Part shown: one piece after another, positions 3,929 to 53,474 of the stretch
Numbering within the stretch: position 1 is the first letter of the stretch
How the letters are laid out: the number at the start of each line of letters is the position of its first letter
Virus record (IMG/VR): IMGVR_UViG_3300047089_000307
Span: 64,001 to 128,000 of that record
DNA: 64,000 nucleotides
Reading direction: 5' to 3' (one strand)
Origin: a virus
The notes under the pieces: generated by a model
Databases searched by the model: none
Told to the model about the DNA's origin: nothing
The model's input: only the letters and a program-made list of their open reading frames with translations
Translations under genes and position numbers: made by a program

Positions 3929-4363
3929 TTAGGTGCCGGCGATGCCCGTGGTCGGGTACCGGGAGATCCTGGTCGCGGCATTCCAGGTGGACTTCAGCGA
4001 CACGGCCGCGGTCACGCCGCCGGCGAGAGAGTAGTCCGGGAGGATCTGGCCGAAGAAATACTGGCCAGGGGCCGCGCCCTGCACGCCCAGCGTGCTCGGG
4101 TACAGGTAGAAGTTGCGCGGCAGGCCGTCCGTGGCGGCAACGTACGTCTGCGCCGTGGCCGTGTCATAGAAACCGCTGAAGTCGCCGGAGGCGTCAGGCA
4201 GGCCAGCCACCCAGATCAGGTTCTGGTCGCCCATGGTGGTGACGTCGACCTTGTTGACGACGAAGTTGATCGACCAGTCCGACAGGAAGGCCATCGGGGC
4301 GGCCAGGTCGGCCGGGTTCACGCCGATGTAGGCGATCCCGTTGCGACCATGGATACGACTCAC
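3929..4363 (-). CDS. Major tail (tube) protein
   Basis: MSRIHGRNG.AY...DWSINF...VDVTTMGD...VAGLPDASGDFSGFYD tail-tube pattern; GAGGAG RBS; position in the tail operon. Confidence 0.8.
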   Translation of the reverse strand: MSRIHGRNGIAYIGVNPADLAAPMAFLSDWSINFVVNKVDVTTMGDQNLIWVAGLPDASGDFSGFYDTATAQTYVAATDGLPRNFYLYPSTLGVQGAAPGQYFFGQILPDYSLAGGVTAAVSLKSTWNAATRISRYPTTGIAGT

Positions 4364-28272: not shown

Positions 28273-28310
28273 GCCCCCGGTTCCTGCTGCGATCAGGAAC
28301 CGGGGGCTTT
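28273..28310 (+). terminator. Intrinsic terminator
   Basis: GCCCCCGGTTCCTG...CAGGAACCGGGGGC followed by TTT. Confidence 0.75.
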
Positions 28311-28747
28311 CCCGTTTGCCGGGCCTGAGACCCTGAGATACTCAGGGCAGCGAAGGGAGGCCGTCATGGGCCTGGAGCAGCGCGTGCGCGCGTACCGCAG
28401 GAGCGCGCGGGACAGCTTTTACCGCTGGCAGGCGGAATACGGGAACGCGCCCGGCGTCACCAGCTGGCGGATGCTGATCGCCAGGAAGTTCGGCATCTCC
28501 ATCGCGCAGGTGCACCGGATACTGGGCGAGGAGGAGAAGCGGTGACCAGCGGCATCCGGGCCGGGGACTTCGCGGTGACGGGGCAGCAGCCCGCGCCAGT
28601 CCCGGGCTACGACCCGGTAGAGATCCGGTGCACGCACTGCGGGACGTCCGCCATGCCCGCCGCGCGCGGGATCGCCGGGGACTGCCTCCTGCTCAGCGAC
28701 CTGCTGGACTGGGCAGGCGCGCACCAGTGCCCTCCGCCGAGCGTGAC

Positions 28748-30493: not shown

Positions 30494-30626
30494 GCCAGGA
30501 GGACAGGGAGCGGCTGATGTCCCGCAGCTTCTTCCGCGCGGACCACTTCGGGCGCTGCTGGCGGGAGACTGACTGGTCGCGCCCCCATGACTACGCCGCG
30601 CAGCTCACGTCCCGGGGATTCAAGGT

Positions 30627-31601
30627 CTACCTGTACCGCCTCGCGCCGGACGATCCGGGGTACGCGGCCTGGAAGGCATCACGGCTGAGCACCGCGAGAA
30701 TCTCGTGGCACGACGATGACCGGGACATGAGGGCCTGGACGGAGGGGCACGGCCGCAGTGATGATGACGCCATCGCCATGGCCTGCGGGCGCCTGACCCT
30801 GCACCGCGAGCGAAAGGCAGCCTCATGACCGCCCGGCGCTGGCCCGGCTGGCGAACGACCTGCACGGCGCCGGCCACGAGGTCTACGTGGTAACCCCCAC
30901 CACGTCGCCAGCACCGGGCGCAGCTGCTTCCAGGTCTCGTCACTGGTGAACAGCCCCAGGAACTCGCACACGTCCCGGACCTCCTGCGGCACGCACGGCA
31001 CGACGCGGGCCGCCGCTGCCTGGTAACCGGGGTACTGGGGGAGAAGATCCCTGGTGAACAGCTCCATCGCGTCAATGGCGTCCTGCCGCTTGTCCTTGTC
31101 ACCGGGACGGCTTTCCAGGGACCGGGTGACCTGCCGCCACGTCAGCGCCTCGCGGGGCAGCCGCTCGCCAGTCTCGGCATCCATGAGCTGGCCGTCGAAC
31201 GGGAAGATCCCGGTGCGCAGCAGCTCGTGCCGGGATTCCCCCATGTCGTCACGCAGCTGGTCGGCGCTGTAGTCGATGCTGTCGTCAGTCCTGGACCAGT
31301 CCGGGTGGCAGAGCGGGCGCACCACGATGACGCTGGCCCGGCCGTGGTCAGAGGTCTCGTAGTCGTAGGAAGCGCACTCGGCAACGTCGTGCTCCAGCCA
31401 GTTCGCCTCGTGCCGGATGGTCAGCCAGTCCATGGACGGGAACGGCTTGCCCTCACCGGGCCCGTACCGCTCGTCCAGCCACCGCAGGTACGCGTGGCCG
31501 CTGTGGCAGCGGCCCTCGGCGAACTTCCAGTTAACCCGCTCGTCTTCTGGCGTGACCCCGGTCAGGGCGTACCCAAGGTGCTTCTGGATGCGGATTCCCA
31601 T
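30627..31601 (-). CDS. Hypothetical protein inserted in inverted orientation
   Basis: Has an RBS and MGIRIQKHLGY start; sequence after ...LATWWG looks like read-through into flanking DNA. Confidence 0.55.
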   Translation of the reverse strand: MGIRIQKHLGYALTGVTPEDERVNWKFAEGRCHSGHAYLRWLDERYGPGEGKPFPSMDWLTIRHEANWLEHDVAECASYDYETSDHGRASVIVVRPLCHPDWSRTDDSIDYSADQLRDDMGESRHELLRTGIFPFDGQLMDAETGERLPREALTWRQVTRSLESRPGDKDKRQDAIDAMELFTRDLLPQYPGYQAAAARVVPCVPQEVRDVCEFLGLFTSDETWKQLRPVLATWWGLPRRPRGRRRAGRSPAGPAPGGHEAAFRSRCRVRRPQAMAMASSSLRPCPSVQALMSRSSSCHEILAVLSRDAFQAAYPGSSGARRYR

Positions 31602-31671
31602 CAGTGGCCCTTCCGGGAGGCAACGGCAAGAACAGCTACCTTTATCATACTGTAAAAGACGAGGAGTTCCT

Positions 31672-32016
31672 GTGACTGCATACGGCTTTGACCTGGACGG
31701 GACGCTCGATCGCCCGGCGCTGGCCCGGCTGGCGAATGACCTGCACGACGTCGGCCATGAGGTCTACGTGGTAACCGGCGGCCTGGGCGATACAGGCGAG
31801 TGGACGCTGCCGGCCCGTGAGCGCACGCTGGCCGCGCTCGGCGTGCGCTACACGGCGATCATGCGCTGCATTGACCCGGACATCCGGCAGCTGGGCCTCC
31901 TGAAAGGCGAGCAGTGCGCCCGGCTGGGCATCGCCGTCATGGTCGATGACGACCGGCTCTACCTGGACGGCGTCGCCGCCGCGGCCAGTGACGTCGTGCG
32001 GCTGCTGGTGCTGTGA
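31672..32016 (+). CDS. HAD-superfamily hydrolase
   Basis: FDLDGTLD, VTG, K and MVDDD motifs. Confidence 0.75.
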   Translation: MTAYGFDLDGTLDRPALARLANDLHDVGHEVYVVTGGLGDTGEWTLPARERTLAALGVRYTAIMRCIDPDIRQLGLLKGEQCARLGIAVMVDDDRLYLDGVAAAASDVVRLLVL

Positions 32017-32351
32017 TGAGCGGCGTGAGCGGCGCGGACCTGTACCGGGAACTGGTCGGGCAGGCGTACGAGCGCCGCAGCGACTGGCGCAATGACCACC
32101 GGAGCCTGTACTGGGTGATGAGCCATGAGTGTCGCAATGTCATCATGCAACTGTGCTCACCGCAGGGATGGCCGGCCCTGGAGCTGTCGCGCACCGAGGG
32201 CCTGCGGGACATGCTGTTCGGCTACCCGGTCATCGCCGGGCCTGCCTACGGCCCGCCGCTGCTGACTGACGACCCGCTGGCAGCGGCGCAACGCGTGCAG
32301 CTGATCGCGCGGAACCTGACGCTAGCGGAACTGGCTAGTGAGCCGGGCTAG
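32013..32351 (+). CDS. Small protein with capsid-like WVM...LFGYPV segment and ARxLTL tag
   Basis: WVMSHEC..VIMQL...G.P...LFGYPV; ends ARNLTLAELASEPG. Confidence 0.55.
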   Translation: MMSGVSGADLYRELVGQAYERRSDWRNDHRSLYWVMSHECRNVIMQLCSPQGWPALELSRTEGLRDMLFGYPVIAGPAYGPPLLTDDPLAAAQRVQLIARNLTLAELASEPG

Positions 32352-32580
32352 CCCACGGTACGATGACTTATACTCTGCAAGACCGAGAAAGGGAGGTCAC
32401 GTGGATAGCAGGGTGACGATCTACGTGCCGCCGGAGCTAAGGGAGAAGCTCAGCTGGCTGCCCCCGCGCACCATCAGCCGGATCTGCCAGCAGGCACTGA
32501 GCGCCGAGGTGACCCGGCGGCTGACGCTGCGGGACGAGGCCGTCGAGGATGCTTTCGCCGAGGACTGAGAAAGGGACCTC

Positions 32581-32940
32581 ATGCCTGACGTCGTGACCGT
32601 GCGCAAGGACGAGCTGCTGGAGGTGCTGCGCAAGAACCGGGCCGCGCACCGGGAGGCGTTCCTGAAGGCGCAGGCAGGCTACCGGGCCCGCGCCATCGCA
32701 GAGCTGGACCGGTCCCTGGCGGACGCGCGGGCCGGCCGGGACATCCGGCTGATCGTCAGCCTGCCGGTGCCCGAGGACCACACGGAGGACTACGACCGGG
32801 AGATCCGGATGCTGGAGATGCACACCGGGAACACCGTCGAGCTGGAGTCCCGGCTGTTCGACCAGGTCGTGATGGACCGCTGGCGCTGGTCGTCCGCCTT
32901 TGAGACCACCAACTCCGCGTACCTGGGCAAGCCGCGGTGA
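32581..32940 (+). CDS. Conserved hypothetical phage protein
   Basis: V.K.ELL..L..NR..H...P.DHT.DYD..I.ML...V.D.W.W pattern; good RBS. Confidence 0.6.
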   Translation: MPDVVTVRKDELLEVLRKNRAAHREAFLKAQAGYRARAIAELDRSLADARAGRDIRLIVSLPVPEDHTEDYDREIRMLEMHTGNTVELESRLFDQVVMDRWRWSSAFETTNSAYLGKPR

Positions 32941-33223
32941 GCAGGCGGGCAGAGGTGAGGTGGCGGGCGCGGGACGTGAGCCGGACCATCGCGTTCACCA
33001 TCCGGCGCCGGCCAGCGCGGTACCTCGGCTGGATGGCCCTCCTCCTGACCGGGGAGGAGACATCGATAGCGGTGGCCTTCTTCAATCCCGTCGCGGCATG
33101 GGCAGCCGTGGCCTGCGCCGTCGCCGCCGCGATCCTGTTCTCGGCTGACAGTGCGCGGCTGCGGAAGAGAGCCCGGCAGCGGCCACTGGACGAGCTAGAC
33201 GAGCTGGGCAAGGAGTGGCCGCA

Positions 33224-34258
33224 GTGACCACGATCTCCTTCACCGCCTCCCGCTTTAACTTCGCCCCGCCGCCGTCCGTCGTGGCCAGCGTGCTGTCCGC
33301 CCGGGTGCCGCTCGCGGACCGCTACGTCACCGGGGCCTGCCAGGGCGGGGACGCCTGGATCGGCGCCTGGCTGTACGTGACCAGGCCGGCCGCTGAGCAC
33401 GTCGTGGTGGTCCCGTGTAACCGCCGTCAGGTCGACCCCTGGTGGACGCGCACCGGGAGCCTGCCGCTGGTGACCGTCATCGACATGCCCCCGGGCACCA
33501 ACTACGCCGACCGGAACCGGGAGCTAGTGGCCAGGGCTGACCAGGTCTTCGGCTTCCCGGCATTCCCGGAGGAGGACCCGCGGTCGCAGCGCAGCGGCAC
33601 CTGGCAGACGATCCGGATGGCCCGCGACGCCGGGAAGCTGAGGCTGTGGCAGTGCGTCACGCCGCCGTACCGGGGGCAGGTTGAGGCCCTGACGGGGGAG
33701 CCGGACCTCGCGGCGCCGGCCACCGTCTCCTATCGCGAGGAGCTCGCGCGGTTCATGACCGCGGAGGGCGAGGAGAAGATCCGGATGCTCTTCGCGGAGC
33801 CGGATGAGCACCAGCCGTGGTGCGGAGACGCGTCGCTGAGCCGGCCGGACGATGAGTGCACTTGCGACGTCACCCCGGAGATGCAGTACGCGCAGCGCGG
33901 CCAGTCCGAGGCGGAGCAGGCCCGGCGCGGGGATGACGGACTCACGGACGAGGAGCGCGCTGAGTACGCCCGGCGCTTCTGGGCGGTGGCCAATGCCCCA
34001 GTCTCGCCCGAGATGCGGGCAGCCACGCGCCGTCGCCTTGACTCCGCGGCCATCGGCGAGTCCCGGCACCAGGCCCGGCGCGGGGATGACGTCGAGGCAT
34101 GGCTGAGGGGCTGGCGGGACCTGCTCGGCGGCGACCCCTGGCACGCCGTGAACGGGCTGCTGGATGATTACCGCAAGCGGGCCGATCTCGGGATTGCCCT
34201 CGATGACGATAGCGAAGCAGGGCACGCCGCTGGGCACGGAGCCGGCGAGGATGAATGA
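33224..34258 (+). CDS. SLOG (DprA/YspA-like) domain protein with C-terminal extension
   Basis: FTASR, TGACQGGD, Y.DRN..LV and SGTWQTIRMA. Confidence 0.6.
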   Translation: MTTISFTASRFNFAPPPSVVASVLSARVPLADRYVTGACQGGDAWIGAWLYVTRPAAEHVVVVPCNRRQVDPWWTRTGSLPLVTVIDMPPGTNYADRNRELVARADQVFGFPAFPEEDPRSQRSGTWQTIRMARDAGKLRLWQCVTPPYRGQVEALTGEPDLAAPATVSYREELARFMTAEGEEKIRMLFAEPDEHQPWCGDASLSRPDDECTCDVTPEMQYAQRGQSEAEQARRGDDGLTDEERAEYARRFWAVANAPVSPEMRAATRRRLDSAAIGESRHQARRGDDVEAWLRGWRDLLGGDPWHAVNGLLDDYRKRADLGIALDDDSEAGHAAGHGAGEDE

Positions 34259-34601
34259 CCCGTCGCAGGTGAGCTACCAGGACCTGTGGGCGTACCTGGT
34301 CGATGAGTACTACCGGTTCCGGCTCCTGGACGCCCCTCGCCGCGGGCCCTGGGCCTGTCACCTGTGGTGGGTAATGCACCCGCGCTGGCTGCACCCGTGC
34401 CTGAACGCAGAAGTAATGAACATGAGCTACCGCATGTACCAGGAACAGCGCAAGAGCCCGGAATGGCTGCTGACCGGCATCCCGGTCCTGGAAGGCATGA
34501 AGTTCGGGGAGCCGAAGCTGACGCGGGACCCGGCCAGCCTCAGCAAGGGGCCGTACCTGCACGCCCGGCCGCTGACGCTGCGGGAGCTGATGAGCCGGTG
34601 A
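34251..34601 (+). CDS. Small protein with capsid-like WVMHP...LTGIPV segment and ARPLTL tag
   Basis: Ends LHARPLTLRELMSR. Confidence 0.55.
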   Translation: MNDPSQVSYQDLWAYLVDEYYRFRLLDAPRRGPWACHLWWVMHPRWLHPCLNAEVMNMSYRMYQEQRKSPEWLLTGIPVLEGMKFGEPKLTRDPASLSKGPYLHARPLTLRELMSR

Positions 34602-35164
34602 CCACGGTAGCGATTGACTTTGACGGAGTTATTCACCGGTACTCACGCGGCTGGCAGGACGGGTCCATCTACGACTTGCCGTTCGACGGGGCGCTGGACG
34701 GGCTACGGCAGCTGATGAGCAGGCACGCGGTCTTCATCTTCACGTCCCGGAACACCGCGCAGGTCGCAGGCTGGCTTCATGACCACGGGTTCAAGGTCAG
34801 CACCGATGACTCGGCCTTCCGGCATGACCGCGACTGGGACGGCGTGTTCTGGGAAACCCGGGGCGTGCTGCTCGTCACTAACCGGAAGCTGGGCGCCTCC
34901 GCTTACCTCGATGACAGGGCCGTCAGGTTCACTAGCTGGAAGCAGGCGCTCGCCGACCTGGGGACGGGAACTGGTCCGGAACCGGACGCCGCCGAGGCGC
35001 TGGCGCGGGAGATCCTTGAGGCGGCATGCCAGCGGGACGGCCTCTCGCTGGAGTCGGACGCGGACCCGGGGAAGCCTGCCCGCAACTACGAGCTGGCGCT
35101 GCGCCTGGGCATCGGGCACGTGTTCGGGCTAGGCCCTGCGCGCGGCGATGAGGTGGAACGATGA
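34598..35164 (+). CDS. HAD-superfamily phosphatase / nucleotidase
   Basis: AIDFDGVIH, FTSR and K..A.AYLDDRA. Confidence 0.8.
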   Translation: MTTVAIDFDGVIHRYSRGWQDGSIYDLPFDGALDGLRQLMSRHAVFIFTSRNTAQVAGWLHDHGFKVSTDDSAFRHDRDWDGVFWETRGVLLVTNRKLGASAYLDDRAVRFTSWKQALADLGTGTGPEPDAAEALAREILEAACQRDGLSLESDADPGKPARNYELALRLGIGHVFGLGPARGDEVER

Positions 35165-36352
35165 CCGCCTGGCTAAGCCCCGGAGGGGAAGACCGCAACG
35201 GGCAGGATCACCCGTGGCACGGCGCGCTGGACGTTGACGAGAGCGCGGTCGACATGCTGGTGATCGTCTTCGCCGAGTGCCGGGAGCTGGGCATCGCGAT
35301 CTCCGGCTTCATGCCGCTGGACACGCCGGCCCACCAGCGCGCGGCCGTCATGCACCTGTCCCGGCTGGTCCTGCGGGAGAAGAGGGAGCGCGGGCTATGA
35401 GCGAGACGGCCCCGAAGGTCAGCTTCACCGTCACCACGTACTGGAAGCGCCCCCGCGGCCAGCCGGGGCTAACGCGGATGGGCAGCCGGCGGCTGACGCT
35501 CAGCGAGGCCCTGGACTGGGTGCTCGCCGAGCTGCCGGCCGACGCGGTCACCCTGGCGCACGACCTGGATGACGGCCGGAACGTGGTGACCGTCACCATC
35601 GACTGGGGCAAGGTACCGATGGAGGCCAGGGACGGTGCCCGGTGAGCAAGCCCGGTGCCCGGTACGAGATCACCGCGATCCGGCGCGTCCGCTGCCCGCT
35701 GTGCGGGTCGGCGGCCGGGCAGTGGTGCACGAGCCGCAGCGCCAGCGACCCGGTTCCGATCGCGCACCCGCACCCGGAACGGATCGCAGCGGTGCTCGCG
35801 GCCAGGAAGGCGAGGAGGCAGGAGCCATCATGACCGAGTGCGGGGTACCAGGCTGCGCAAGCCACCCGGAGCCGCTGCTGACCGCGGCCGAGCGTAACCT
35901 CATCCGGGCGCTCGGCCTGGCCTACCGGCAATTCGAGGAGCTGGCCGGCCATTCCCCGCTGACGCGCGACGATGACCTGGCCGAAGTCCGGCTGCACGTT
36001 CACGCACTTCAGCGGATGATCATGGCGCAGGCCGCGGCGCGGGCGTTCCCGGGTGAGCTGCGGGCACTGGGGCTAACCGTCACTGACGGCGCGCTGGCCA
36101 ACCGGGAAGGCAGTGACCCGGGACATGAAGACCGGGCAGTACGCGGCCGGGAAGTCCAGGAGGATGGCAGGCAATGAGCAGCCTGGCTGACCTGAGCACG
36201 ATCATGGCCAGCTGCTTCACGGAGTGGCTGGAATACGAGCACGCCTGGCATGCCCTGAACGACGATGAGATGGCGATCATGACCAGGGCTTTCGGCGCGG
36301 GCTTCCTCTACGGCGGGCTGCTGCTGACGCGCGAAGAGACCGGGGAGCTGCC

Positions 36353-37111
36353 GTGAACACGCCGCTGGCCTGGGACGCCGCGCTCGGCCGGCCGCTGCTG
36401 CTCGATGCCTACTGCGGGGCTGGCGGCATAGCCTGGGGGTACTGGCTGGCCGGCTTCGCCGTCATCGGCATCGATCACCAGCCGCAGCCGCACTACCCGT
36501 TCCCGTTCTTCCAGGGCGACGCCGTCAAGGCGCTGGGCGACCTGATCGCCGGGAAGCCACTGTCCTTCACCTACCAGCCCACGGGCAGCGTCGTGCCGTA
36601 CCGGCTGAAGGACGTCGCCGCGATCCACGCCAGCTGCCCTTGCCAGTTCGCCACCGTATACGGGAACAACAAGGCGCACGTGAAGCAGGATCACCCGAAC
36701 CTGATTCCGCCAACCCGCGAGCTGCTGGCGGCCACCGGGCTGCCGTACGTGATCGAGAACGTCTACGGCGCGCGGGCGCACCTGAAGGACCCGGTCATGC
36801 TGTGCGGCACGTCGTTCGGCATCGAGGTACGGCGGCACCGGCTGTTCGAGTCGACGGTGACGATCCCCTCGGTTCCCTGTGACCACGGCCGGTTCACGGC
36901 ACGCAAGTACCCGGGCAGCTCCAACCGGCCGAACGGGCGCACCGTGTGCAACATCGGCGAGTACCGCGTCCCGCTGGCGGTCCAGCAGGCCGCGATCGGG
37001 ATCAGCTGGATGAACCTGGCGGAGATCGCGCAGGCGATTCCCCCGTGCTACACCGAGTTCATCGGCATGTTCCTGATGAACGACCTGATCCTGAAAGGGC
37101 GTGAGCCATGA
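36353..37111 (+). CDS. C5-cytosine DNA methyltransferase-like protein
   Basis: LDAYCGAGG (motif I), HASCPCQ (catalytic PC), IENV, RHRLFE and AIPP.YT. Confidence 0.8.
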   Translation: MNTPLAWDAALGRPLLLDAYCGAGGIAWGYWLAGFAVIGIDHQPQPHYPFPFFQGDAVKALGDLIAGKPLSFTYQPTGSVVPYRLKDVAAIHASCPCQFATVYGNNKAHVKQDHPNLIPPTRELLAATGLPYVIENVYGARAHLKDPVMLCGTSFGIEVRRHRLFESTVTIPSVPCDHGRFTARKYPGSSNRPNGRTVCNIGEYRVPLAVQQAAIGISWMNLAEIAQAIPPCYTEFIGMFLMNDLILKGREP

Positions 37112-40100
37112 TCGTCCGCTTCACCGGGCTCTGCGCGCCGTGCGCCGTGGGGGAAAGGTAAGGCATTGACCGAGCGGGATGCCATGGAAAGGGCCATGAT
37201 CGCCGTGCGCACGATCCTCGCGCAGTCCAAGGACCCGCGCACCACGCTAGGCCGGATGGGACCTTCCTCCGTGGCCTTCCATGCGGCCTGGGCCGCAGTT
37301 GACACGTACCGCAAGGCCCTGGAGGAAACATGAGTCACTACCTGTCCACCGCGTGCTATCACGAGCACCTGGCCAGCGACCCGGCACTGCACGACGCCTG
37401 CCGCCTGGCCTGCAAGTTCTGCGATGCGCCGTGCAGCTGCCCGCAGCACCCGCAGGAGAGCGGCAGCCCGCGCGCCGTCAGCGGGATCGACCAGGCCCGG
37501 GACATCGCCCGCGAGCTGCTGAGCTTGCTGGAGGAAGCCGGCGGGGTGCCGTACAAGCTCCACGAGCGGCTGAGCGATGACCCGCGGCTGTTCTGGCTGA
37601 GCGGGGGAGAGGCGCCGCCCGGGACGTGGAAGCAGGGGGAGGAGCAGCGGTAATGGCTGACTGCACGGCCTGGAAGGAAACCACCACCCGGCAGGTCTTC
37701 GAGCTGAGCATGCCGTCGAACGCCATCGAGCTGTCGAAGATGATCAGCTGGGCGTGCTCAGCGTATCGATCGGCGCACGGCAAGGAGCCGGCTGACGACG
37801 CGATCACCGTCACGGTCACCGATGACGCGATCATGCTGGGCTACGTGCTGGAGAAGGGCCGGCTGCAATGAGGGCGCTGCGGTGGCTGGCCTGGCTGGCG
37901 GACGAGATCCTGGACCGCGTGCCCGCCGTCGAGGACGGCCGCGTTTACTGGTACGGCGGCTGGGGCTGCCGCCTGCGGATGTCCCGGTTCTGGGACGAGG
38001 GGGATAAGCCGTGAGCGCGGGCTTCTGCCAGCACACCGGGGACTGCTGGGATGACCCGGACTGCGCGCTGCACGGCTCGGGCCTGTGCCCGGCACTGGTC
38101 GCCATCCCCGCGCAGGCCCGTGAGCGCATCCTGCGCCAGCACCGGGAGCTAGGGCAGCTCACGGCGCGGGACGAGGCGCTGGAGGGCGACGAATTGCGCA
38201 AGGTGCGGATGCGCCCCGTGAACGAAGCCGAGGACGACTGGTGAGCGCCGCCACGCCGCGCTCATTCTGGCTCGCCGTGCTCACCCGGGTGCTGGACCGC
38301 GCAGCTGACAGCGCGGAAGAGCGCGCACGCAGGTTATACTGCGAGAGACTTAGAAGGAGGACGGTGATGATGACTGCGCACCGCGGATGCCGTAGTTGCG
38401 GGAACGTCCGAACATGCACGTGCTCCGCCACGTGCGACTGCCGTTGCATCGATTGCCACTGCCATGCCTGATATCCCCATCCGGGCACGGTGCAGTGGCA
38501 TGTGCGCCCTGCACTGCGCCGGCCACGAGTACCAGGCAGAGCTCAGCTCGAAGGACGCGGACCGGCTGCTGGAGTGGCTGCGCAACGGCGACGCGGGGAC
38601 GTTCACCCCGCACTCGCCCAGCCGGCTGTTCATTGACGCCACCGGCAACGGCGGCCTCGTCATCAGGATGGCGCCGTGACCGGCGCAGTGAGCGGGCCGG
38701 CTCCCCGCAGGCCGGTGGTCCCCGGCTCCGGGCAGGCCGGCGAGCCGCGTGACCTCGCGCGCTGCCAGGCCCCGGACGGCACCGGGCACGCTTGCCGGGC
38801 ACGGGCGTCCTGGCGGGTCAGCATCGGCAGCCGCCGCAGCGACGCGCAGCTGGCCTGCGGCCGGCACCTGAACATGGCCGCCCTGGCGATGCTCGGCGCG
38901 GAGGGGCGCGCCAGCGCCGTGCTCGCCGTCACGCCCGTGGCCGGCCTGCGCGCCCTGGCGGGGCTGAGTGAGTACCTGAGCCCGGCGGAGATCCGGCAGG
39001 GGGCGCGGCCATGACCAGCGGGGGGAAGCTGCCCGAGGCCCGGCTGCTGCTGCGCATCAGGTACCGGGGGCCGTGGGAGCGGCTGGAGGGCTTCTTCTAC
39101 GGCGTCCGCGCGGACAATACCCTGCGCTTCAAGATCAGCGAGACCCCCCGCGGCTGGCGACGGGCGGCTGCCGCGCTCGGTGACTACTGCGACCGCCGGG
39201 ACAGCGCCTGGCATGACCGCCATGCACGGGGCGGTACCCGCCCGCATCGCGCCTGGAAGAGGAGAGGGCCGTGATCACGGGCGAGGAGCGGGCCGTCGCC
39301 CGCAGGCTGTGGCCGGATGACGAGGAGACGGACTTCACCGTGGCCGTCGTCCCGGGCGACCCGGCCTGGATACGGCTGTCGTGCTCCGTGCACGGCCCCG
39401 TCATCGCTGCCGTCACCTGGGACCTGGGCGAGCTGCTCGTCGCCGCCGAGCGGCACTACGTCACCCGGCACCTGCGCCCGAACCGGGCTGCCCGCCCTGG
39501 CGAGTGCTCCTTCTGCTCGGGCGGGATGGCGGACTACTGCACCTGCCCGCCGGAGGAGGCACCGTGATCAGCTTCAGTGACACTGGCCGCGCCATGACCC
39601 TCATCGCCAGCATCAGCGCAGCCAAGGAGACGCACCCGGGCTTCTGGCCGATGCTGGTCACGCGGATCGTCACTGACCTGGACATCGCCGGCGATGAAGC
39701 GGCCGTGGCGATGATCGTGAGGCTGCTCGCCCTGCTGCGGGGCCAGCTGGAGGACAGGGTCACGGTGCCCGCCAGCGCCCAGGACGTCAAGGTCCGCGTG
39801 AACCGCCTGCGCAGGATGGCCAGGCGGCAGGGCCTGCGGCTCGTCAAGTCGCGGCTCCGGGACCCGCTCGCGCCCGGCTTCGGCCGTTACCAGGTGGTGA
39901 CGGCACAGGGGGAGGAGCCAGAGCGCTTCACCTCGCCCGGGGGATGGGGCCTGACGCTCAGTGAGGCTGAGCGGCGCCTCACGGAGACCGCCGCGGCAGC
40001 GCGCACGACCTTCCGCTGGCAAGGCGAGTGCCCGAACTGCGGGGACCCCGCCGCTGAGGACCTGTGCGCCCGGTGCCAGGCCCTCATGCAGTCCCCGGCC

Positions 40101-40401
40101 ATGCGGCAGCTGCTGGCGACCCTGGCGAGCAGGGAGCAGCCGTGATCACCGACAAGCGCTGCTGGTGGTGCGGGAAGCTCTTCAAGGGCATCGACACCGA
40201 CGTCCCCGTGGGCGCAGGCTACCTATGGGACACCGACGTGAGCATCCTGTGCGACGGCGACGGCTCGCAGGACTGCGAGCGCAGGGTAAAGCGACCCTGA
40301 GAAAAGAAAAAGAAAAAGGAGAAGCACATGATGGGACAGAGCTCCTCCCACGGGGCCTCGTACTCCAACGGCCCGCTGGCAGCCGGCCAGGCCAAGCGGG
40401 A

Positions 40402-40560
40402 TGCCGGATGGGATATCCGCCCCGTCCGGCACTGGGACTTCACCGAGCCCCAGACGCTGGCCTGACCGTTAGGAAGGGTCCCAGTGCCGGACGGGATATC
40501 AGCCCGCCCGGCACGGGGACTTCACCGAGCCCAGACGCTGGCCCGACCGTCAGAAAGGCA
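40402..40560 (+). repeat. Two ~75 bp direct repeats, each with an internal hairpin
   Basis: TGCCGGAYGGGATATC...CCCGYCCGGCAC.GGGACTTCACCGAGCCC..GACGCTGGCC at 40402 and 40485. Confidence 0.75.
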
Positions 40561-40563
40561 CGC

Positions 40564-41280
40564 ATGTACCACGGAACATCCCTTACCAGCCCGGAGCGCA
40601 CGATCACCGCAGAGGTGATCTGCGCCGGGCGCCGGCTGCCCTTCTACCAGCGCCCGGCAGACGGCTACCCCTACATTCCCGGAACCGCCGGGGCCAGCTA
40701 CCTGATCGCGGTGCGGAACCTGGGCACCCGGCGCATCGAGGTGCTCGCCGCCGTGGACGGCATGAGCCTGATCACCGAGGAGGAGGCGTCCCTGGAGCGC
40801 AGCCAGGGCCTGGTCATCCCCGCGCACGGGGAGTACCGGTTCGCCGGCTTCCGCACCGGGGACGACTCCTCCCGGGAGCTGGTCTTCGGGGACCCGGCCG
40901 GGTCGGTCGCGGAGCAGGCCACCGGGTCCGCGGCAGGCTGCGGCGTGATCGGCATCGCCGCCTGGGTAGAACAGCACGCGCCCGCCTGGACCGCCGCCGC
41001 GGGAGGAGCAGCGCCCCCGGTCAGCGGCTTCGAGACCCGCGGCGGCACCCGGGGCATGACCCCGAACGCCTCCCGGGGGCTGGGCACGCACGCCGGAGCC
41101 GAGCGCCACGACCCGGTGGGCCGCACCTCGTTCACCCGCGCGCACGGGAGGCCGGACGTGCTGGTCATCGGCTACAAGGAGCTGGCGGAGCTGGAGGCGA
41201 TGGGGATCACCGGCCCGGCCGACCCGGAGCCGTTCCCCGGTGACGTGAAGGCGGCCGGGTACCGCCGGTACGCGCCGTGA
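40564..41280 (+). CDS. Conserved hypothetical protein
   Basis: Y.I.VRN...RRIEVL.AVDG...GFR...G.IG.A...GLGT.AG...SF.R; AGAAAGG RBS. Confidence 0.6.
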   Translation: MYHGTSLTSPERTITAEVICAGRRLPFYQRPADGYPYIPGTAGASYLIAVRNLGTRRIEVLAAVDGMSLITEEEASLERSQGLVIPAHGEYRFAGFRTGDDSSRELVFGDPAGSVAEQATGSAAGCGVIGIAAWVEQHAPAWTAAAGGAAPPVSGFETRGGTRGMTPNASRGLGTHAGAERHDPVGRTSFTRAHGRPDVLVIGYKELAELEAMGITGPADPEPFPGDVKAAGYRRYAP

Positions 41281-41870
41281 CAAGGCAGTTCACCATCGTG
41301 CTGACCAGCGCTGACGGGCAGGTTAACTCGCGGTTCGAGTGCGAGGCGCAGACCCCGCAGGCTGCGCTGACGGCTTTCGCCGGCGCGGGACCGAGGACGT
41401 GGCTGTACGGCCTGACCGCTGACGAATGGCTGCACCTGGCCAGCGAGGGCGAGGACAGCGAGGTGCAGCCCTGCTGCGGTAACGTCGGCGAACTGCGCGA
41501 CCTGCTGCGCGCCCTGGCCACGTTCCAGTCCCGGGATGACACGGGGTGGCAGCTCAGTATCGGCCGCCACATCCTGGAGAACCTGGACGGCGACGGGGAC
41601 GGGCACGGCCTGGGCGACGCCGCCGCGTTCCCGCTGCTGCACCGGGTGCTGGACGGCATCCGGGCGCAGCAGGCCGGCCAGGGCCCGGGCGAGGAGTCGT
41701 CCCACCGGGGGGCAGGTGACCGGCCCTGATCATCTTCGGCAAGTGCACCGCGTGCGAGGGCACCGGGGACCACAACGCCTGCGGCGGGGACGGTTGCCGG
41801 AACTGCGACTGGACGGGCACGTGCAGCGCCTGCGGCGGCCGGGGAACGAAATGACGGGGGTGGCCGCCCT

Positions 41871-42452
41871 GTGACTGAGGAAGCGCCGCGGGCCGGGCCT
41901 GCCCTGACCGCGGCACAGCAGGACCTGCTGCGCCGGCTAACCCAGGGCCCGCAGCCGGCGGTAACCTGCGTGCTCGGCGTCGACCCCGGCCCTGTCACGG
42001 GCATCGCGTGGCTGTGCTCCGGGCCGGGGCAGCGTCCCCTGGTCTTCCAGTGCAATGCCGCGGGCGCGTACCCGCTGGCGAGCTGGCTGCTGGAGGCCAG
42101 CGAGGGGCCGGCCCGGATCATCTGCGCCGGCGAGCGGTTCATCACCGGGCGCGGCGCCGGGGCCAGGGGCGCGAACGCTACCGCCACCCGGCAGGTGATC
42201 AGCGACCTGGACCGGCTCGCCAGGTGGCACTGGCGCAGCGCAGCAGAAGTGAAACCCTGGGCAACCGACGCCCGGCTGAAGGCGGCAGGGCTGCTGGAGC
42301 AGTGCCACGGCATGCCGCACGCTGCCGACGCGTGCAGGCATGCTTTGTTTGCCATGATCCACGACTGTGGCATGCCCGATCCGCTCTCGCGCAAGGCGGG
42401 CACGCTCTATGCCCGGTCACTGTCGCTGGAAGAACTGGAGGGCTTCTCATGA
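41871..42452 (+). CDS. RuvC-like Holliday junction resolvase
   Basis: VLGVDPG..TG.A, ERF, K and HAADA..HA; also carries a C-terminal ARSLSLEE tag. Confidence 0.75.
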   Translation: MTEEAPRAGPALTAAQQDLLRRLTQGPQPAVTCVLGVDPGPVTGIAWLCSGPGQRPLVFQCNAAGAYPLASWLLEASEGPARIICAGERFITGRGAGARGANATATRQVISDLDRLARWHWRSAAEVKPWATDARLKAAGLLEQCHGMPHAADACRHALFAMIHDCGMPDPLSRKAGTLYARSLSLEELEGFS

Positions 42453-42869
42453 TGCCGGCTGACGGGGAGAGCAGCTTCCGGATGGTGCTGACCTCGAATT
42501 CCTGCCCGCGCTGCGGCGCCATCACCTACCTCCGGCTGTCCGCCTCCGCAGAGGGAAGCGTCGCCGTGGCCGGCGAGCAGCCACCGCCCGTCGACAACCG
42601 GGCGCAGCACGCGGACTGGCACGAGCGGACGGGCACGTGAGCGCCTGGCGGCTAGTGGCGGGCCTGGCCGGCGTGGCGGCGGCACTCGCGGCCGTGATCC
42701 TGGCAGCCCAGGCGGTCGCCAGGGGATCAGTGCTGGAGATCGCGTTCCTGCCCGCGCTCATCGGGCTGCCCGCCAGCGTCGCGGTGATCATCCTTGAGCC
42801 GTCCTCCCCGGGCGAGGATGATGATGACGACGAGGATGACGAGCCGGGCTGGCGCGAGCGGACGGGCAC

Positions 42870-43232
42870 GTGAGCAGGCACCGGGGCCGGATAGGGTTCC
42901 GGGGCGGCTGGGCGCTGACGTACGAGGAAGACCGCTGGTGGCCGTCCTGGGAGAGTGCTTCCCGGCTGCACTGCGTCACCTGGACGCTGGACGACGTGGT
43001 CATGACGCAGGCGCAGTACGAGCGGGCCGCCGCCGTCCGGGACGACGCTCCGTACTGGCTGACCGCCATGGCAGCCGGGCTTGCGATGACGGCCGGGCTC
43101 GCGATGGTCAGCGGGATCTTGCTCAGCGAGGCTGAGGCGATGGCCATCCGGCGCGGCGCTCACCCGCTGACGGTGCTGCTGCCCCGGACCTGGGCCCGGC
43201 CGCTGACCCTGGCGGAGATGATGGGTGCATGA
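42870..43232 (+). CDS. ARPLTLxEM-tag family protein
   Basis: RGGWAL near the N-terminus; ends WARPLTLAEMMGA. Confidence 0.7.
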   Translation: MSRHRGRIGFRGGWALTYEEDRWWPSWESASRLHCVTWTLDDVVMTQAQYERAAAVRDDAPYWLTAMAAGLAMTAGLAMVSGILLSEAEAMAIRRGAHPLTVLLPRTWARPLTLAEMMGA

Positions 43233-43540
43233 GCGTGCTGGCGCAGCGAGACGGCTGGACGCTGGAGACAGGCCCGCCTTCCCCTCCTGACTTCCCCTGT
43301 GCTGCGTTCATCCTGCGCGAGCTGGCCGTGACGCAGGAGCAGTGCGCCGCCATCTTGTACCGCTGCGGCCGGACCGGGTCCTGGTTCCGGGTCCCCGTCC
43401 CCGGCGGATGGGTCATGACGCTGGAGCTGGACCGGGCGGAGGCGCACGCGATCGGGCTGCTGGGACGCGACCCGCTGACGGTGCTGGCTCCCCCGCTGCA
43501 CGCCCGGTCACTGACCCTGAGGGAGATGATGAGCGCATGA
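43229..43540 (+). CDS. ARPLTLxEM-tag family protein
   Basis: MSVLAQRDGWTL...HARSLTLREMMSA. Confidence 0.75.
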   Translation: MSVLAQRDGWTLETGPPSPPDFPCAAFILRELAVTQEQCAAILYRCGRTGSWFRVPVPGGWVMTLELDRAEAHAIGLLGRDPLTVLAPPLHARSLTLREMMSA

Positions 43541-43857
43541 GCGTGCTGGCGCAGCGAGACGGCTGGACGCTGAGCGCGTGGCGCTGGCCCCGGAGCGGCA
43601 GCCTGCTCCGGCACGTGTACCAGCTCCGGCACGTGTACCAGCTGGACGGGCTGACGGTAACGGACGCGCAGCTCCAGGCCATGACCGCCCGGTCATCGCA
43701 CATGTGGTGGGTAAGCCCTGAGTGCCTGATCATGCACGGCGTCAGCCTCACCTGGGAGCAAGCCCGCGCAATCCAGGACGGGGCAAATCCGGTAACCGTG
43801 CTGACCCCTCGCTTCCGGGCCCGGTCACTGACCCTGAGGGAGATGATGGGCGCATGA
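43537..43857 (+). CDS. ARPLTLxEM-tag family protein
   Basis: MSVLAQRDGWTL...RARSLTLREMMGA. Confidence 0.75.
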   Translation: MSVLAQRDGWTLSAWRWPRSGSLLRHVYQLRHVYQLDGLTVTDAQLQAMTARSSHMWWVSPECLIMHGVSLTWEQARAIQDGANPVTVLTPRFRARSLTLREMMGA

Positions 43858-44237
43858 GCAGGATAGTCATGAAACGACGGCTGCGGTGCGGCGCGGTGCT
43901 GACCGCGCAGGAGCACTGGGAGCACTCGATGGGCGTCATGTCGCCAGGGCACCGGGAGGTACTCTTCACGCTGCATGACCTCCCGGTGACGCCCGGAGAC
44001 GCCGAGCGGCTGATGTCGGCGCGACCGCGGCCATGGCGTCGGGGTGCAGGCAGCTGGATTACCAGAACCTTCATGCACCAGTACGGCGCGAACGTCACCC
44101 CCGTCTTGTCCCTGTCCCGGATTCAGGTCACGCCGCAGGAGGCGGACCGCATGCTGTCCGGGGAGCACCCGATGGCGGTGCTGCTGCCGCCGCTGTACGC
44201 GCGGTCGCTGACCCTGGCGGAGATGACGGGCGCATGA
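43854..44237 (+). CDS. ARPLTLxEM-tag family protein
   Basis: Ends YARSLTLAEMTGA; ATGA overlaps on both sides. Confidence 0.7.
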   Translation: MSRIVMKRRLRCGAVLTAQEHWEHSMGVMSPGHREVLFTLHDLPVTPGDAERLMSARPRPWRRGAGSWITRTFMHQYGANVTPVLSLSRIQVTPQEADRMLSGEHPMAVLLPPLYARSLTLAEMTGA

Positions 44238-44563
44238 CGTGCAGCGAGATGCTCGCCGCCCGGGACGGCTGGACGCTGGACGCGGCGTGGGAGGGCGCCT
44301 TCCCGTACGGGACCGTGTCCTCCCCGGTTCGCTGCACGCTGTCCGGGCTGCGGGTGACGAGGAGCCAGGCCCGCGCCATCACCACGGGCCGGGCCGTGCT
44401 CACCGTTGAGCACGAGTACCCGTTCGGCAGCTTCTTCCTCCTGCACCTGGAGGTCACGCCGGCCGAGGCTCACGCCATCGCGGGCGGCAGGCACCCGCTG
44501 AACGTGCTGATGCCGCCGCTGTACGCGCGGTCGCTGACCCTGGCGGAGATGACGGGCACGTGA
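44234..44563 (+). CDS. ARPLTLxEM-tag family protein
   Basis: ARDGWTL...YARSLTLAEMTGT. Confidence 0.75.
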   Translation: MTCSEMLAARDGWTLDAAWEGAFPYGTVSSPVRCTLSGLRVTRSQARAITTGRAVLTVEHEYPFGSFFLLHLEVTPAEAHAIAGGRHPLNVLMPPLYARSLTLAEMTGT

Positions 44564-45006
44564 CCCGCGTCACCGGCAGGAACGGGATCATGTACCTCGG
44601 CACGGGGCCGGGCGCGCTGCTCGGCCAGCCCGTGGCTTATATCCCGGACTGGTCCATTGACTTCGACGTCCTGCCGGCAGCACTGACCGGGGTGACGCTC
44701 GCCGAGCGGGACGGCTGGACGCTGCGGGCCGGCACCGCCCCGTACGGTCACTTCGGCGATACGCGCCCGCTGTACGTGCTGGAGAACCTGATGGTGACGG
44801 CCGGGCAGGCGAGCCAGGTCATGCGGCACCGGCCGGGGGACCTGCCCTGGCACCTGGGCCACGGCAACGGCCCGCTGCGGCCGATGAAGATGGTGCTGAC
44901 CACGGAGGAGACGGTGCGCGTCTGGCGCGGGGCCGACCCGCTGGCCATGCTGGCCCCGCCGCTGCGCGCCCGCGCGCTGACCCTGGAGGAGATGATGAGG
45001 GAATGA
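44560..45006 (+). CDS. ARPLTLxEM-tag family protein with tail-tube-like N-terminus
   Basis: MTRVTGRNGIMYLG...DWSIDF matches the tail tube N-terminus; then ERDGWTL...RARALTLEEMMRE. Confidence 0.75.
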   Translation: MTRVTGRNGIMYLGTGPGALLGQPVAYIPDWSIDFDVLPAALTGVTLAERDGWTLRAGTAPYGHFGDTRPLYVLENLMVTAGQASQVMRHRPGDLPWHLGHGNGPLRPMKMVLTTEETVRVWRGADPLAMLAPPLRARALTLEEMMRE

Positions 45007-45416
45007 GCTGGGACTGGCCGGGCTGGCGACTGGCCCGCACCTTCCACGGCAGCCGGAACGGGATGGCCCGGCGCGATAACTGGACGCTGGAGACCTGGCA
45101 GTACGAGGCGCCGCTGACCTGTTACTCCGAGTACCTCATCCCGCGCGTGACCACCGACGTGCGGTACGTGCTGTCCGGCCTGACGGTGACGCCCCGCGAG
45201 GCGGATGCCATCACCGGCCGTCGCCTGGGGCACTTCGCGCCGCCGCGGGCCAGCGTGCACTACGGCTACGGCCCTGGCCCGGTCCTGGTGATGGACGACA
45301 TTGAGCTGACCATGGACGAGGCGGCGGCCATCGTAGACGGCACCGACCCGGTGGCCGCGCTGGCGCCGCGGATCAGGGCACGGCCGCTGAGCCTTCAGGA
45401 GATGATGGGCGCATGA
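45003..45416 (+). CDS. ARPLTLxEM-tag family protein
   Basis: RRDNWTL...RARPLSLQEMMGA. Confidence 0.75.
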   Translation: MSWDWPGWRLARTFHGSRNGMARRDNWTLETWQYEAPLTCYSEYLIPRVTTDVRYVLSGLTVTPREADAITGRRLGHFAPPRASVHYGYGPGPVLVMDDIELTMDEAAAIVDGTDPVAALAPRIRARPLSLQEMMGA

Positions 45417-45664
45417 GCGAGGGCTACTCCTGGCGGGACCTGACGGGCTTCCTGGTGTCCGTCCACCGTGACCAGGCCGCCCGGCAAGAAGCCGGGGACC
45501 GCCAGGTCGCGGCACTGCGGGCGTCGGTCTGGCAGCTCCAGCGCCAGGCCGGCGTGATGACCCTGAATGAGGTGCGGGCCCGGCAGGACAGGGCGTCCCT
45601 GCCGCCCGGCACGATCGTGCTGCGCGCCCGGCCGCTGAGCCTTCAGGAGATGCTAGGCACGTGA
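45413..45664 (+). CDS. Tagged small protein with portal-like AGVMTLNEVRAR segment
   Basis: Ends RARPLSLQEMLGT. Confidence 0.65.
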   Translation: MSEGYSWRDLTGFLVSVHRDQAARQEAGDRQVAALRASVWQLQRQAGVMTLNEVRARQDRASLPPGTIVLRARPLSLQEMLGT

Positions 45665-45695
45665 CGCAGGACAACGGAAAGCGAGTGCGCACGCC

Positions 45696-46070
45696 ATGCG
45701 GCCACCAGGAATTACCTACGATGCCCCCCGGCCGCAGCCGTGGACGCTGACCCAGGTCCGGGACTACCCGGGCGGGCCGCGGCGGTGGCAGCTGGCCCTG
45801 GAGGTTACCGGCGGCGAGCAGGCCAGGGCGGTCCGGCTAGCGCGGGGCGGCAGCGGGGTGATGCGGACCCGGGACGACGGCGTCATGCGGTACCCGGAGG
45901 CTTACCTGTTCGAGTTCATCGACGTCACCGCGGAGGAGATGCTCGCCATCGCGGGCGGGGCCAGCCCGCTGGACGTGCTGCTGCGCGGCCCGGACGGGGC
46001 GCGGCAGTGGCTGTGGCCGCTGGTGCTGCGCGCCCGGCCGCTGAGCCTTCAGGAGATGCTGGGCACGTGA
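45696..46070 (+). CDS. ARPLTLxEM-tag family protein
   Basis: WTL...VTAEEM.AI.GG..PL.VL...RARPLSLQEMLGT. Confidence 0.7.
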   Translation: MRPPGITYDAPRPQPWTLTQVRDYPGGPRRWQLALEVTGGEQARAVRLARGGSGVMRTRDDGVMRYPEAYLFEFIDVTAEEMLAIAGGASPLDVLLRGPDGARQWLWPLVLRARPLSLQEMLGT

Positions 46071-46240
46071 GCCACGGGGACTACGTGCAGCTCCTGGCGA
46101 GGCTGTACCTGGCCGGGATCATCACCGCAGCCAAGGCCCGCTGCCTGCATGAGGCCGCTTTCACGCGATGGCGGGCAACGACCGGGGGGCCGCTGCCGCT
46201 GGCAGCCCGGCCACTGACCCTGGCCGAGATGCTGGGCTAG
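46067..46240 (+). CDS. Tagged small protein
   Basis: LYLAGIITAAKAR...AARPLTLAEMLG. Confidence 0.6.
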   Translation: MSHGDYVQLLARLYLAGIITAAKARCLHEAAFTRWRATTGGPLPLAARPLTLAEMLG

Positions 46241-46647
46241 TACCTGGCGATCTTCCGGACGACGAGAGCGAGTACGCCGATGATCAGGACCACGATGACC
46301 CAGGCAGCCAGGTCGGATGCCCACACGGGCAGTATCCCGGGGCCGGGGTGGTAGCAAGAGGGATCGCCGGGCCGGCCCGTGAAGCCGTGGCACCGGCCCA
46401 GTGTCCCTGCCATCAGCCCGGCCCGGCCAGCAGGTGACCGGGTGGGGCTGGGTACTCATCGCCGTGTGCGTATCGGCGCTTCTCTTCCTGGCCGCGTGCT
46501 GGGCGGGCACTTGCTCGGTGAAGGGGTGCCGTGAGCCGGTGCGGTTCCACTCGATGGCGCGGCCGGGGACGGACGTGTGCGCCCGGCATTTCTGGGAGGA
46601 ATGGGACGACGGTTACCGGTGCTGACTGACCCTGCCATGCGCGCGGG

Positions 46648-51543: not shown

Positions 51544-52501
51544 CAGGCTTCCCTTTCTTCTTTACATGGACTGACTGATACCCCACGATACTCTAAGACT
51601 GCTATCCTGGACTACATGAGCACTAAGGGCATGAAGGGTCACGGGGGCATCGATCCGTATGCAGGCAACGGCTGGTCCTCCCTGTACTGCCACGACTGTG
51701 AGCAAACCTGCTCCCCGGCTAGCCCGTGCGACCACTGCGAGCCGGAGGTCTGCACCAGCAAGGGCCGCGTGATCTACCGGGGGCCTGAGCGAGTGCAGGG
51801 GACAGGGGGATGGGAGCGCGAGCCGTGAGCTACCAGGGCAGCAACCGCAATGACGAGAAGGCACCGGATGAGGTGACGGGCACGCTGCTGGTCACGGTCA
51901 CCGTATACGGCGGGACGCTGGCGGACGCGGCGACCGCGCTGTCCAGTTACCGGGGCAAGGGCTGGGGCCGGGAGATGACCGACCTGCTAAATGGCGGGGA
52001 GTTCGAGGTCATCGCCGCTGACGTCGCTAAGGACGTCACGGCCGGCGACGCTGATCCTGACGTCATGAGCGAGCAGGAGCTGCGCGAGGAGATCACCCGG
52101 GTCGTCCTCGCGCAGCGAGCAGACTGCGCGGAGCACCCGATGCCGTTCCCGCGGCCGTCGTGCTGGGCGTGCGCCCGCAACGGGGCCTTCCACCGGGCGG
52201 CGCTGCTCGCGGCGGGCCGCTGGCCGGCCGCTGACCCGGTGACGTACGTGCTGCCCGCTCAGCCGGGCCGCTGGCCGGCCGCTGACCCGGAAGGAGCTGA
52301 TGACGAGACGGCCGCGCCAGCCAGGCACAAGGCACGCGTGCGCAGCACCGGCCTGCGCTATGACGGCGTGCGGCTGTGGCGCTGGGCCTGCCCGCACTGG
52401 GACCAGGGCCGGAACCGGAACTGCCGCGGCGGCGACTACGGGTCCTGGGCCATGGCCGTCCGTGACGCCGTCCGGCACGCCGGGTCAGGCGGCACGGCCT
52501 G

Positions 52502-52831
52502 GTGAGTAATCGCCACGGGCTGGCCCGGGACGGCTGGGGGCTGCCCGTCGCCGGGGACGGCTGGACGCTGACCGTGGAGCCGCTGCGCGGCCGTGACAAG
52601 TACGTCCGGTTCGCGCTGCGCGGGCCGGTCGCAAACGTGACGCCCGGCGAGCGGGCCGCGCTGCGGGTGTTCCAGGCACCGGGCGGCTGGCCGGCGATAG
52701 GCGTGGACGGCGGCATCGAGGTGAGCTGGGAAGAGGCGCAGCTGATCCGGGGCGGACGCGACCCGCGGCACGTGCTGTGGCCGCCGCTGCGGGCCCGGGC
52801 GCTGACGCTGGCGGAGATGATGAGCCGGTGA
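52502..52831 (+). CDS. ARPLTLxEM-tag family protein
   Basis: ARDGW, DGWTL...RARALTLAEMMSR. Confidence 0.7.
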   Translation: MSNRHGLARDGWGLPVAGDGWTLTVEPLRGRDKYVRFALRGPVANVTPGERAALRVFQAPGGWPAIGVDGGIEVSWEEAQLIRGGRDPRHVLWPPLRARALTLAEMMSR

Positions 52832-53151
52832 ACCGCCTGCTGCTCCCGGGCCCGCGGCCGTCAGGAAGCTACCCGGTGCCGGAGGAGTACGCGCAGCGAC
52901 TGCTGCGCGCGGCCGGGTGCACCGGGGCGATGCTCCTGGGCTGGCGCGACGGGCTAGGGCCGCGCTGCCGGATGTGCGGCCGGGTCGCCGTCATCCCCAC
53001 GGCCGCGCTCTGGGAGCGCATCGCGGGCTGGCGCGTCCCTGACCCCGCGTACAGCATGCGCGAGCACGCCCGCTGGGCGCTGGCCGACCCGGAAGCCAGC
53101 CGCGCCGTCATGGCCGGGGGCGCGGTCCTGCTGGAGATGATGGCGAGATGA
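52828..53151 (+). CDS. Hypothetical protein with partial tag
   Basis: Ends LLEMMAR; overlapping start and stop. Confidence 0.55.
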   Translation: MNRLLLPGPRPSGSYPVPEEYAQRLLRAAGCTGAMLLGWRDGLGPRCRMCGRVAVIPTAALWERIAGWRVPDPAYSMREHARWALADPEASRAVMAGGAVLLEMMAR

Positions 53152-53474
53152 CCGTGACGCGGGCGCGCGACGGCTGGACGCTGCACATCGAGAAGAGCCC
53201 GCCCGGCAGCCGTTTCGTGAACCGGACCTGGCTGGACGGGCTGGCCGTCACCCGGGAGCAGGCGCATGCCATCATCACCGCGGGGGGCGCGGAGCGCACG
53301 TGGACGCTCGCGGGATACCACCAGGAGTGGCCGGCCCATGTGCTCATCCTGGACAGGGTCGGCGTGACCCGGGAGGAGTACCTGGCGATCCTGGGCGGGC
53401 GCGATCCGGTGAGCGTCCTCCTGCCGCTGCTGCGGGCCCGCGCGCTAACGCTGGCGGAGATGATGGCGCAGTGA
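53148..53474 (+). CDS. ARPLTLxEM-tag family protein
   Basis: ARDGWTL...RARALTLAEMMAQ. Confidence 0.75.
   Translation: MTVTRARDGWTLHIEKSPPGSRFVNRTWLDGLAVTREQAHAIITAGGAERTWTLAGYHQEWPAHVLILDRVGVTREEYLAILGGRDPVSVLLPLLRARALTLAEMMAQ

Follow-up and report, generated by a model that had tools for sequence, protein, structure and literature searches.

A short C-terminal peptide, referred to here as the tag, was found to end 17 open reading frames (ORFs) of an uncultured 158.6-kb HK97-type siphophage from soil, and several of the tagged proteins carry short, diverged copies of the phage's own virion proteins. The window analysed is the 64,000-nucleotide (nt) stretch at bases 64001–128000 of the 158,651-bp virus record IMGVR_UViG_3300047089_000307, which is 75% complete by CheckV; 15 of the 17 tagged ORFs lie within the window and two elsewhere in the genome (Table 1). 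The tagged proteins are, with a single exception (16/17), virion-derived, paralogues of virion-derived ones or a weak look-alike, and all short ORFs of this genome that match capsid, portal or tube profiles are tagged. Judged from their sequences, the pieces are tentatively read as bait, aimed at host factors that detect unassembled virion proteins, a reading to which we give slightly less than even credence; baits with a common handle are favoured because the pieces sample sensed protein classes, recur across phages and spread patchily.

The tag, ARxL(T/S)LxE(M/L), is encoded on the plus strand in all 17 ORFs, always at the C-terminus and 2–6 codons ahead of the stop. The tag on these proteins, already noticed in a first-pass annotation of the window, is real: the 17 ORFs score 32–43 bits with a matrix built from the same 17 ORFs, the next-best ORF scores 10.5 bits, and the motif was also recovered without prior by a de novo scan of ORF ends. 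The codons of the tag vary synonymously, the Thr/Ser position being written as ACC, ACG, AGC or TCG, and the proportion of synonymous differences (pS) is 0.35 against 0.16 for nonsynonymous ones (pN), a comparison that is partly circular. Because of this synonymous variation the tag seems to be conserved as a peptide, and the peptide is conserved also in genes without a coupled neighbour. In most of the array each gene overlaps the following one, whose ribosome-binding site, GGAG, is supplied by the E-M codons of the tag; the main array, within the replication-gene region, is translationally coupled. No candidate for a reader (partner) of the tag emerged from gene-content comparison. The exception among the 17 is a protein that we take to be RuvC-like from its catalytic motifs.

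Table 1. Tagged genes, the relic tag and the tail-tube reference gene. Positions are those of the window unless marked as genome positions.
Feature	Position	Strand	Remark
Intact own tail-tube gene, reference for fragments	3929..4363	-	PHROG major tail protein E 7e-5
Capsid A-domain mini-gene + tag, own capsid residues 273–354	32016..32351	+	GTG at 32013 is an alternative start
Diverged 32016 paralogue + tag	34251..34601	+	Capsid ancestry only indirect
RuvC-like resolvase + appended tag	41871..42452	+	PHROG 1981 E 9e-11
Core-family paralogue + tag	42870..43232	+	
Core-family paralogue + tag	43229..43540	+	
Core-family paralogue + tag	43537..43857	+	Absent from close relative L004
Core-family paralogue + tag	43854..44237	+	
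Core-family paralogue + tag	44234..44563	+	
Tube N-terminal segment (residues 1–43) + core-family domain + tag	44560..45006	+	
Core-family paralogue + tag	45003..45416	+	
Portal C-terminal helix motif mini-gene + tag, own portal residues about 356–387	45413..45664	+	
Core-family paralogue + tag	45696..46070	+	
57-aa mini-gene + tag	46067..46240	+	Portal resemblance not significant
Relic tag, out of register inside ORF 51810–52505	52273..52299	+	Sole out-of-place copy in genome
Core-family paralogue + tag	52502..52831	+	Outside main array
Core-family paralogue + tag	53148..53474	+	Outside main array
Delta-domain mini, 98 aa, tagged	genome 20100–20396 (L001:3101–3397)	+	Outside window, between terminase and portal
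Tape-measure C-terminal motif mini, 109 aa, tagged	genome 51434–51763 (L002:4435–4764)	+	After tail terminator gene

Fragment searches were run with the tag removed against the 2,857 ORFs of the genome (phmmer), and 15,739 short ORFs from six related phages were searched with capsid, tube and portal profiles; the shuffle tests used profiles chosen by region and are therefore somewhat optimistic. The tagged fragment ORFs ranked first after the true genes in these profile searches, with the next capsid and tube matches beyond them at E about 2. ORF 32016, which the first-pass annotation had listed at 32013 and compared by eye with the HK97 capsid, matches the phage's own capsid (416 amino acids (aa) with delta domain; PHROG 10, E 1e-61) at E 2.9e-6, with 32% identity over 84 aa and 0 of 1000 shuffles scoring as well; it aligns to residues 251–325 of the RcGTA capsid, a stretch presumably belonging to the A-domain, as assigned from knowledge of the HK97 fold. 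ORF 34251 could not be matched directly to the capsid (119/1000 shuffles), nor to any Pfam, PHROG or PDB entry, and is connected to the capsid indirectly, because the link runs only through its paralogue 32016 (E 1.4e-3; 0/5000 shuffles for the whole protein, 26/5000 without the pre-tag linker). Both proteins are 111–116 aa long and do not hold a full-length capsid fold of P-domain, E-loop and A-domain. The strongest fragment match was that of the delta-domain mini to the delta domain of the own capsid (43% identity over 54 aa, E 6e-9). In Pfam and PHROG scans none of the fragments reached the cut-off, and profiles of the capsid-like and portal-like minis retrieved no capsid or portal from PDB. 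The fragments are equally close to the phage's own proteins and to those of its relatives (31–51% identity) and, judged from these alike identities, are old, diverged copies kept open, not recent duplications; they are 50–70% diverged from any source, yet have open frames and a GC content at third codon positions (GC3) of 0.86–0.97.

The similarity of ORF 45413 to the portal is, by the sequence comparisons, real but short; the first-pass annotation had proposed it from an echo of the portal motif G.MT.NE.R. The match to the own portal (PHROG 12, E 8e-68) is weak in the genome search (E 0.15), and the Pfam portal family (PF04860) is matched at model positions 297–320 of 321 at E 0.04, below the Pfam cut-off, with the PHROG portal at E 0.03; however, ORF 45413 is the best non-portal match of the portal profile among the short ORFs of the six genomes (E 0.078), scores 18.9 bits against a portal C-terminal profile (0/1000 shuffles), and shares 34–39% identity with five portals, with homology in their C-terminal G-x-x-T-x-x-E-x-R segment. 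Alignment of the portal-like minis to whole portals by hhalign was not significant (E 0.054). ORF 46067, for which a weaker portal echo had been suggested, stays at chance level (228/1000 shuffles; no Pfam or PHROG match). The tape-measure mini was recovered at 0/1000 shuffles; one of its motifs appears, by eye, closer to the tape measure of a relative than to the own one. In two relatives (G001, L113; G010, L097) the portal gene is interrupted by about 360 aa inserted in frame, probably an intein.

Ten tagged genes are mutual paralogues and constitute the core family. ORF 44560 is the member that begins like a tail tube, as the first-pass annotation had observed: its residues 2–43 match the own tube at E 8e-8 and share 44–51% identity with five tubes, and its orthologue in the close relative L004 is 91% identical. 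Within this genome the tube signal survives only in 44560, via an extra, longer tube segment. A core-family profile search of 1.8 billion representatives returned 115 matches, of which 113 are small homologues, and many of these start tube-like with MSRIH followed by a W(S/T)L strand, some with a DVT-x-x-G turn. With a threshold of 1/100 shuffles, a tube N-terminal profile recognised 21 of the 113 homologues, compared with 1 of 46 controls, and hhalign of the core family with the tube gave E 8e-6 for a hand-picked subset. By this profile evidence the core family is a descendant of the tube N-terminus (the hairpin part). No core-family member turned up when viral, metagenome and genome collections were scanned by pattern and by locus, and none occurs in cultured phages. 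The AlphaFold (AF2) model of 44560 is confident for core residues 45–148 (predicted local distance difference test (pLDDT) about 90) and below 50 for residues 1–30; the core folds as a small alpha/beta domain that contains a long hairpin (53–80) and two repeated strand-helix units, and the tag forms an extended stretch plus the last helix. No clear fold match for the core domain stood out in fold searches, which does not imply a new fold; the best hit had Z 5.4 and a root-mean-square deviation of 4.1 over 103 residues, and no tube was among the matches listed. We infer that the core is a scaffold whose hairpin derives from the ring-stacking hairpin of the tube; the hairpin was assigned from its place in the sequence and from general knowledge because the own tail-tube model is poor (pLDDT 36).

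The motifs quoted in the first-pass annotation are all present in the sequence where it had placed them, and of its five structural resemblances three (32016, 45413 and 44560) hold directly and that of 34251 indirectly, whereas that of 46067 does not; profile-level similarity is real for the capsid, tube and portal pieces and is also seen in the delta-domain and tape-measure minis outside the window.

Core-family homologues are found in soil-type phage contigs where the same helicase, RuvC-like and primase-polymerase genes lie nearby, and their distribution is patchy, with the family present in one of seven near-complete relatives (G010) and neither family nor tag in three others (G002–G004). 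In every phage the tag and the ending of its family genes are the same. The 185-kb G010 holds five family members and about 20 ORFs with a different tag, YRLxxVPW, whereas a closer version of the tag ends family genes and minis in L129 and L130; endings of intermediate form occur among the homologues, which suggests a single, diverging family of tags. Four tandem minis beside or upstream of the G010 terminase (L098:2675–3674, G010 161075–162074) have in common a 19-residue N-terminal motif related to the C-terminal tag of G010. One of these N-tagged minis holds the portal helix (3/1000 shuffles), as does one L129 mini (1/1000 shuffles). For the other N-tagged minis of G010 a portal or capsid origin was not supported (435/1000 and 308/1000 shuffles), nor was the terminase-like look of one G010 payload. 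Elsewhere in G010 (L093, G010 65772–66751), a tandem row of five tagged minis is zinc-ribbon-like and has CxxC pairs.

Differential levels of constraint were observed when the array genes were compared with the close relatives L004 and L127, and the structural genes with another relative, by simple counting of nonsynonymous to synonymous substitution rates (dN/dS), which high GC3 biases upward. The pooled dN/dS of the array genes is 0.88 and that of the 32016 allele in L127 is 0.69, in contrast to 0.07–0.24 for capsid, protease, tube and RuvC, with the RuvC-like gene at 0.24. Among 235 substitutions no stop was found, where about 6 are expected, a count partly biased as the loci were found via intact proteins; no frameshift was present, and all indels are in frame. 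From the dN/dS near 0.9, the absence of stops and the in-frame indels, frame and tag are judged to be maintained while residues drift, and this pattern fits a chase or relaxed constraint alike, which two alleles cannot separate. A diversity-generating retroelement was rejected, the differences not being adenine-specific (62 of 235 C/G, 39 C/T), and no YxDD context of a reverse transcriptase was found by a simple pattern.

Under the bait reading, the phage would keep short, diverged copies of conserved particle-protein surfaces (the capsid A-domain, the delta domain, the portal C-terminal helix motif, the tube N-arm and hairpin, and the tape-measure C-terminal segment), all of them joined to a single peptide specific to the lineage, and the core family would be an amplified small domain whose tube-derived N-terminal hairpin varies freely. 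During lytic growth the pieces would bind host pattern sensors or assembly blockers, titrating without triggering them; the tag would be a handle for one partner that gathers, sequesters or degrades bait and catch, and the fast drift would reflect a chase across many host alleles. Published sensors bind, or are modelled to bind, the surfaces covered by the capsid and tube pieces: the capsid A-domain is bound by Avs7, Avs8 and Avs10 and the tube hairpin by Avs16, apparently on monomeric virion proteins, Avs11 targets the portal and Avs18 the tape measure (10.64898/2026.01.04.697583), while DSR2 contacts tube loop 35–55 (PMC11087589). These targets belong to the same four protein classes as the pieces here, but the Avs systems are host receptors, not phage decoys, and the tape-measure piece is C-terminal, unlike the central helix bound by Avs18 and the segment that suffices for that sensor. 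Several points weigh against baits. Recognition by Avs sensors involves folded cores and large interfaces (10.64898/2026.01.04.697583), and pieces of 30–80 residues at about 30% identity may be unable to rebuild a fold-level epitope. Fragments can also activate, a tape-measure segment sufficing for Avs18 (10.64898/2026.01.04.697583), so that a piece might trigger a sensor, not block it. Moreover, detectable tube signal is lost in nine of the ten paralogues here, the model of 44560 has low confidence over its tube-like part, about 15 tagged G010 payloads have no detectable virion match, the RuvC-like enzyme carries the tag too, and the dN/dS of 0.88 is alike in scaffold and variable parts, which relaxed selection explains equally well. 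A general phage counter-immunity design, in which diversifying own-virion baits would share one handle through which a single partner sequesters or destroys whichever receptor binds and a dedicated scaffold family displays tail-tube hairpin variants, is a doubtful extension.

Mimic-type inhibitors are already known; in the papers searched, no description of virion fragments with a tag, or of a tagged library of genuine virion pieces from several classes, was found. DSAD1 of phage SPbeta is a small protein that occupies the DSR2 pocket for the tail tube (PMC10973363, PMC11087589), and blocking of a sensor pocket by mimicry would be the mode proposed here by analogy. DSAD1, however, is a single protein of its own fold with no structural homologues reported (PMC10973363, PMC11087589), unlike the pieces here, which are true virion homologues of several classes with a shared tag; it was absent from the fold matches listed for the core domain, which does not exclude a relation. 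The fragment sources are the HK97-type capsid, portal (PF04860) and siphovirus tail-tube families, only 30–85 residues of each being kept, which makes a full fold impossible for any piece. Mutation gives phages little escape from sensors of conserved capsid, portal, tube and tape-measure folds. As candidate answers to such sensors, the locus provides a small set that can be cloned, about 17 genes with one removable tag; if the bait reading is true, the fragments would mark surfaces watched by actinobacterial defences.

The main rival, unlikely but simpler, is cassette shuffling: recombination would repeatedly attach a portable core-family 3' end (tag codons, GGAG and overlapping stop/start) to DNA that has been captured. 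The resulting genes would then drift, with weak selection demanding little more of them than a frame left open so that translational coupling persists. The contrast in dN/dS between array and core genes and the spacing of the GGAG, 10–11 nt ahead of the following start codon in most genes of the array, agree with it, as do the relic tag at 52273 and the different array content in L004. Similarly, the L127 allele of 32016 has 30 differing sites, all before the tag end, and then none for >240 nt, and the phage-specific tag is a family gene end that the RuvC-like orthologues, untagged in three contigs, match in three lineages; the tagged enzyme and the near-neutral drift fit this model too. On the other hand, shuffling leaves unexplained why the payloads are mostly conserved virion surfaces and why the portal helix recurs in separate phages, gives no account of open frames with such GC3 in pieces so diverged, and does not explain a tag kept as a peptide where no neighbour is coupled. 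If shuffling is true, the locus would be a clear case of a portable gene end making new phage genes.

Less probable again is an address label, by which the tag would target the phage's own assembly site or head and the fragments would be auxiliary scaffolds or modulators of its own assembly. The T4 capsid-targeting sequence resembles it in being one short peptide common to otherwise unrelated phage proteins, but it is N-terminal and removed by the prohead protease, whereas the tag is C-terminal, 2–6 residues before the stop, and unrelated in sequence. The positions of the delta-domain mini between terminase and portal, of the tape-measure mini after the tail terminator gene and of the G010 portal-helix minis adjoining terminase favour such a label, which also accounts for the tagged enzyme; against it, 15 of the 17 tagged genes sit among replication and accessory genes, and six of the seven near-complete relatives, with closely related tubes, build particles without the family, three complete relatives lacking the tag as well. 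Poisoning of co-infecting phages by dominant-negative capping of capsid, portal or tube interfaces, the weaker half of what the first-pass annotation had inferred, is the least probable, since the pieces are as near the own proteins as those of relatives, so that self-poisoning is expected, and prophage-type protection is not supported because no integrase was found (no PF00589 or PF07508 match for a tyrosine or large serine integrase in the 75% complete record), even though the sensed surfaces are assembly interfaces too and phage-encoded assembly blockers exist (Tab, PMC10884400). Both of these fit less well than baits. Tab is likewise a phage-encoded small protein acting on virion proteins but is constitutive from a prophage, with an anti-Tab partner (PMC10884400), whereas here no integrase was found in the 75% complete record and most tagged genes belong to a lytic-type operon.

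The phage encodes terminase, portal, protease, an HK97-type capsid with delta domain, tail tube and tape-measure. Its host is probably an actinobacterium, as suggested by the genome GC near 70%, a Rv2525c-like lysin and Ku encoded by the phage, and DUF397 genes in relatives. No close cultured phage was found, the best capsid identity being <34%, and one relative is classed as a provirus. No sigma-70 promoter was found within window 27000–46900. After the last tagged paralogue, two small ORFs at window 53471–53865 have degenerate tag-like tails, and an adjoining 418-aa ORF at the second tagged cluster (53862–55118, minus strand) has no Pfam match; it is shared with G010 and absent from tagless relatives, and its G010 match may be a mobile-element gene. 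The phage also encodes a class II aminoacyl-tRNA synthetase (window 55982–57562, minus strand; PF00587 and PF03129). In addition, a 69-nt direct repeat (93%) at window 30827–30895 and 31708–31776 lies on either side of a minus-strand 324-aa ORF and suggests the trace of an insertion into a duplicated HAD-like gene.

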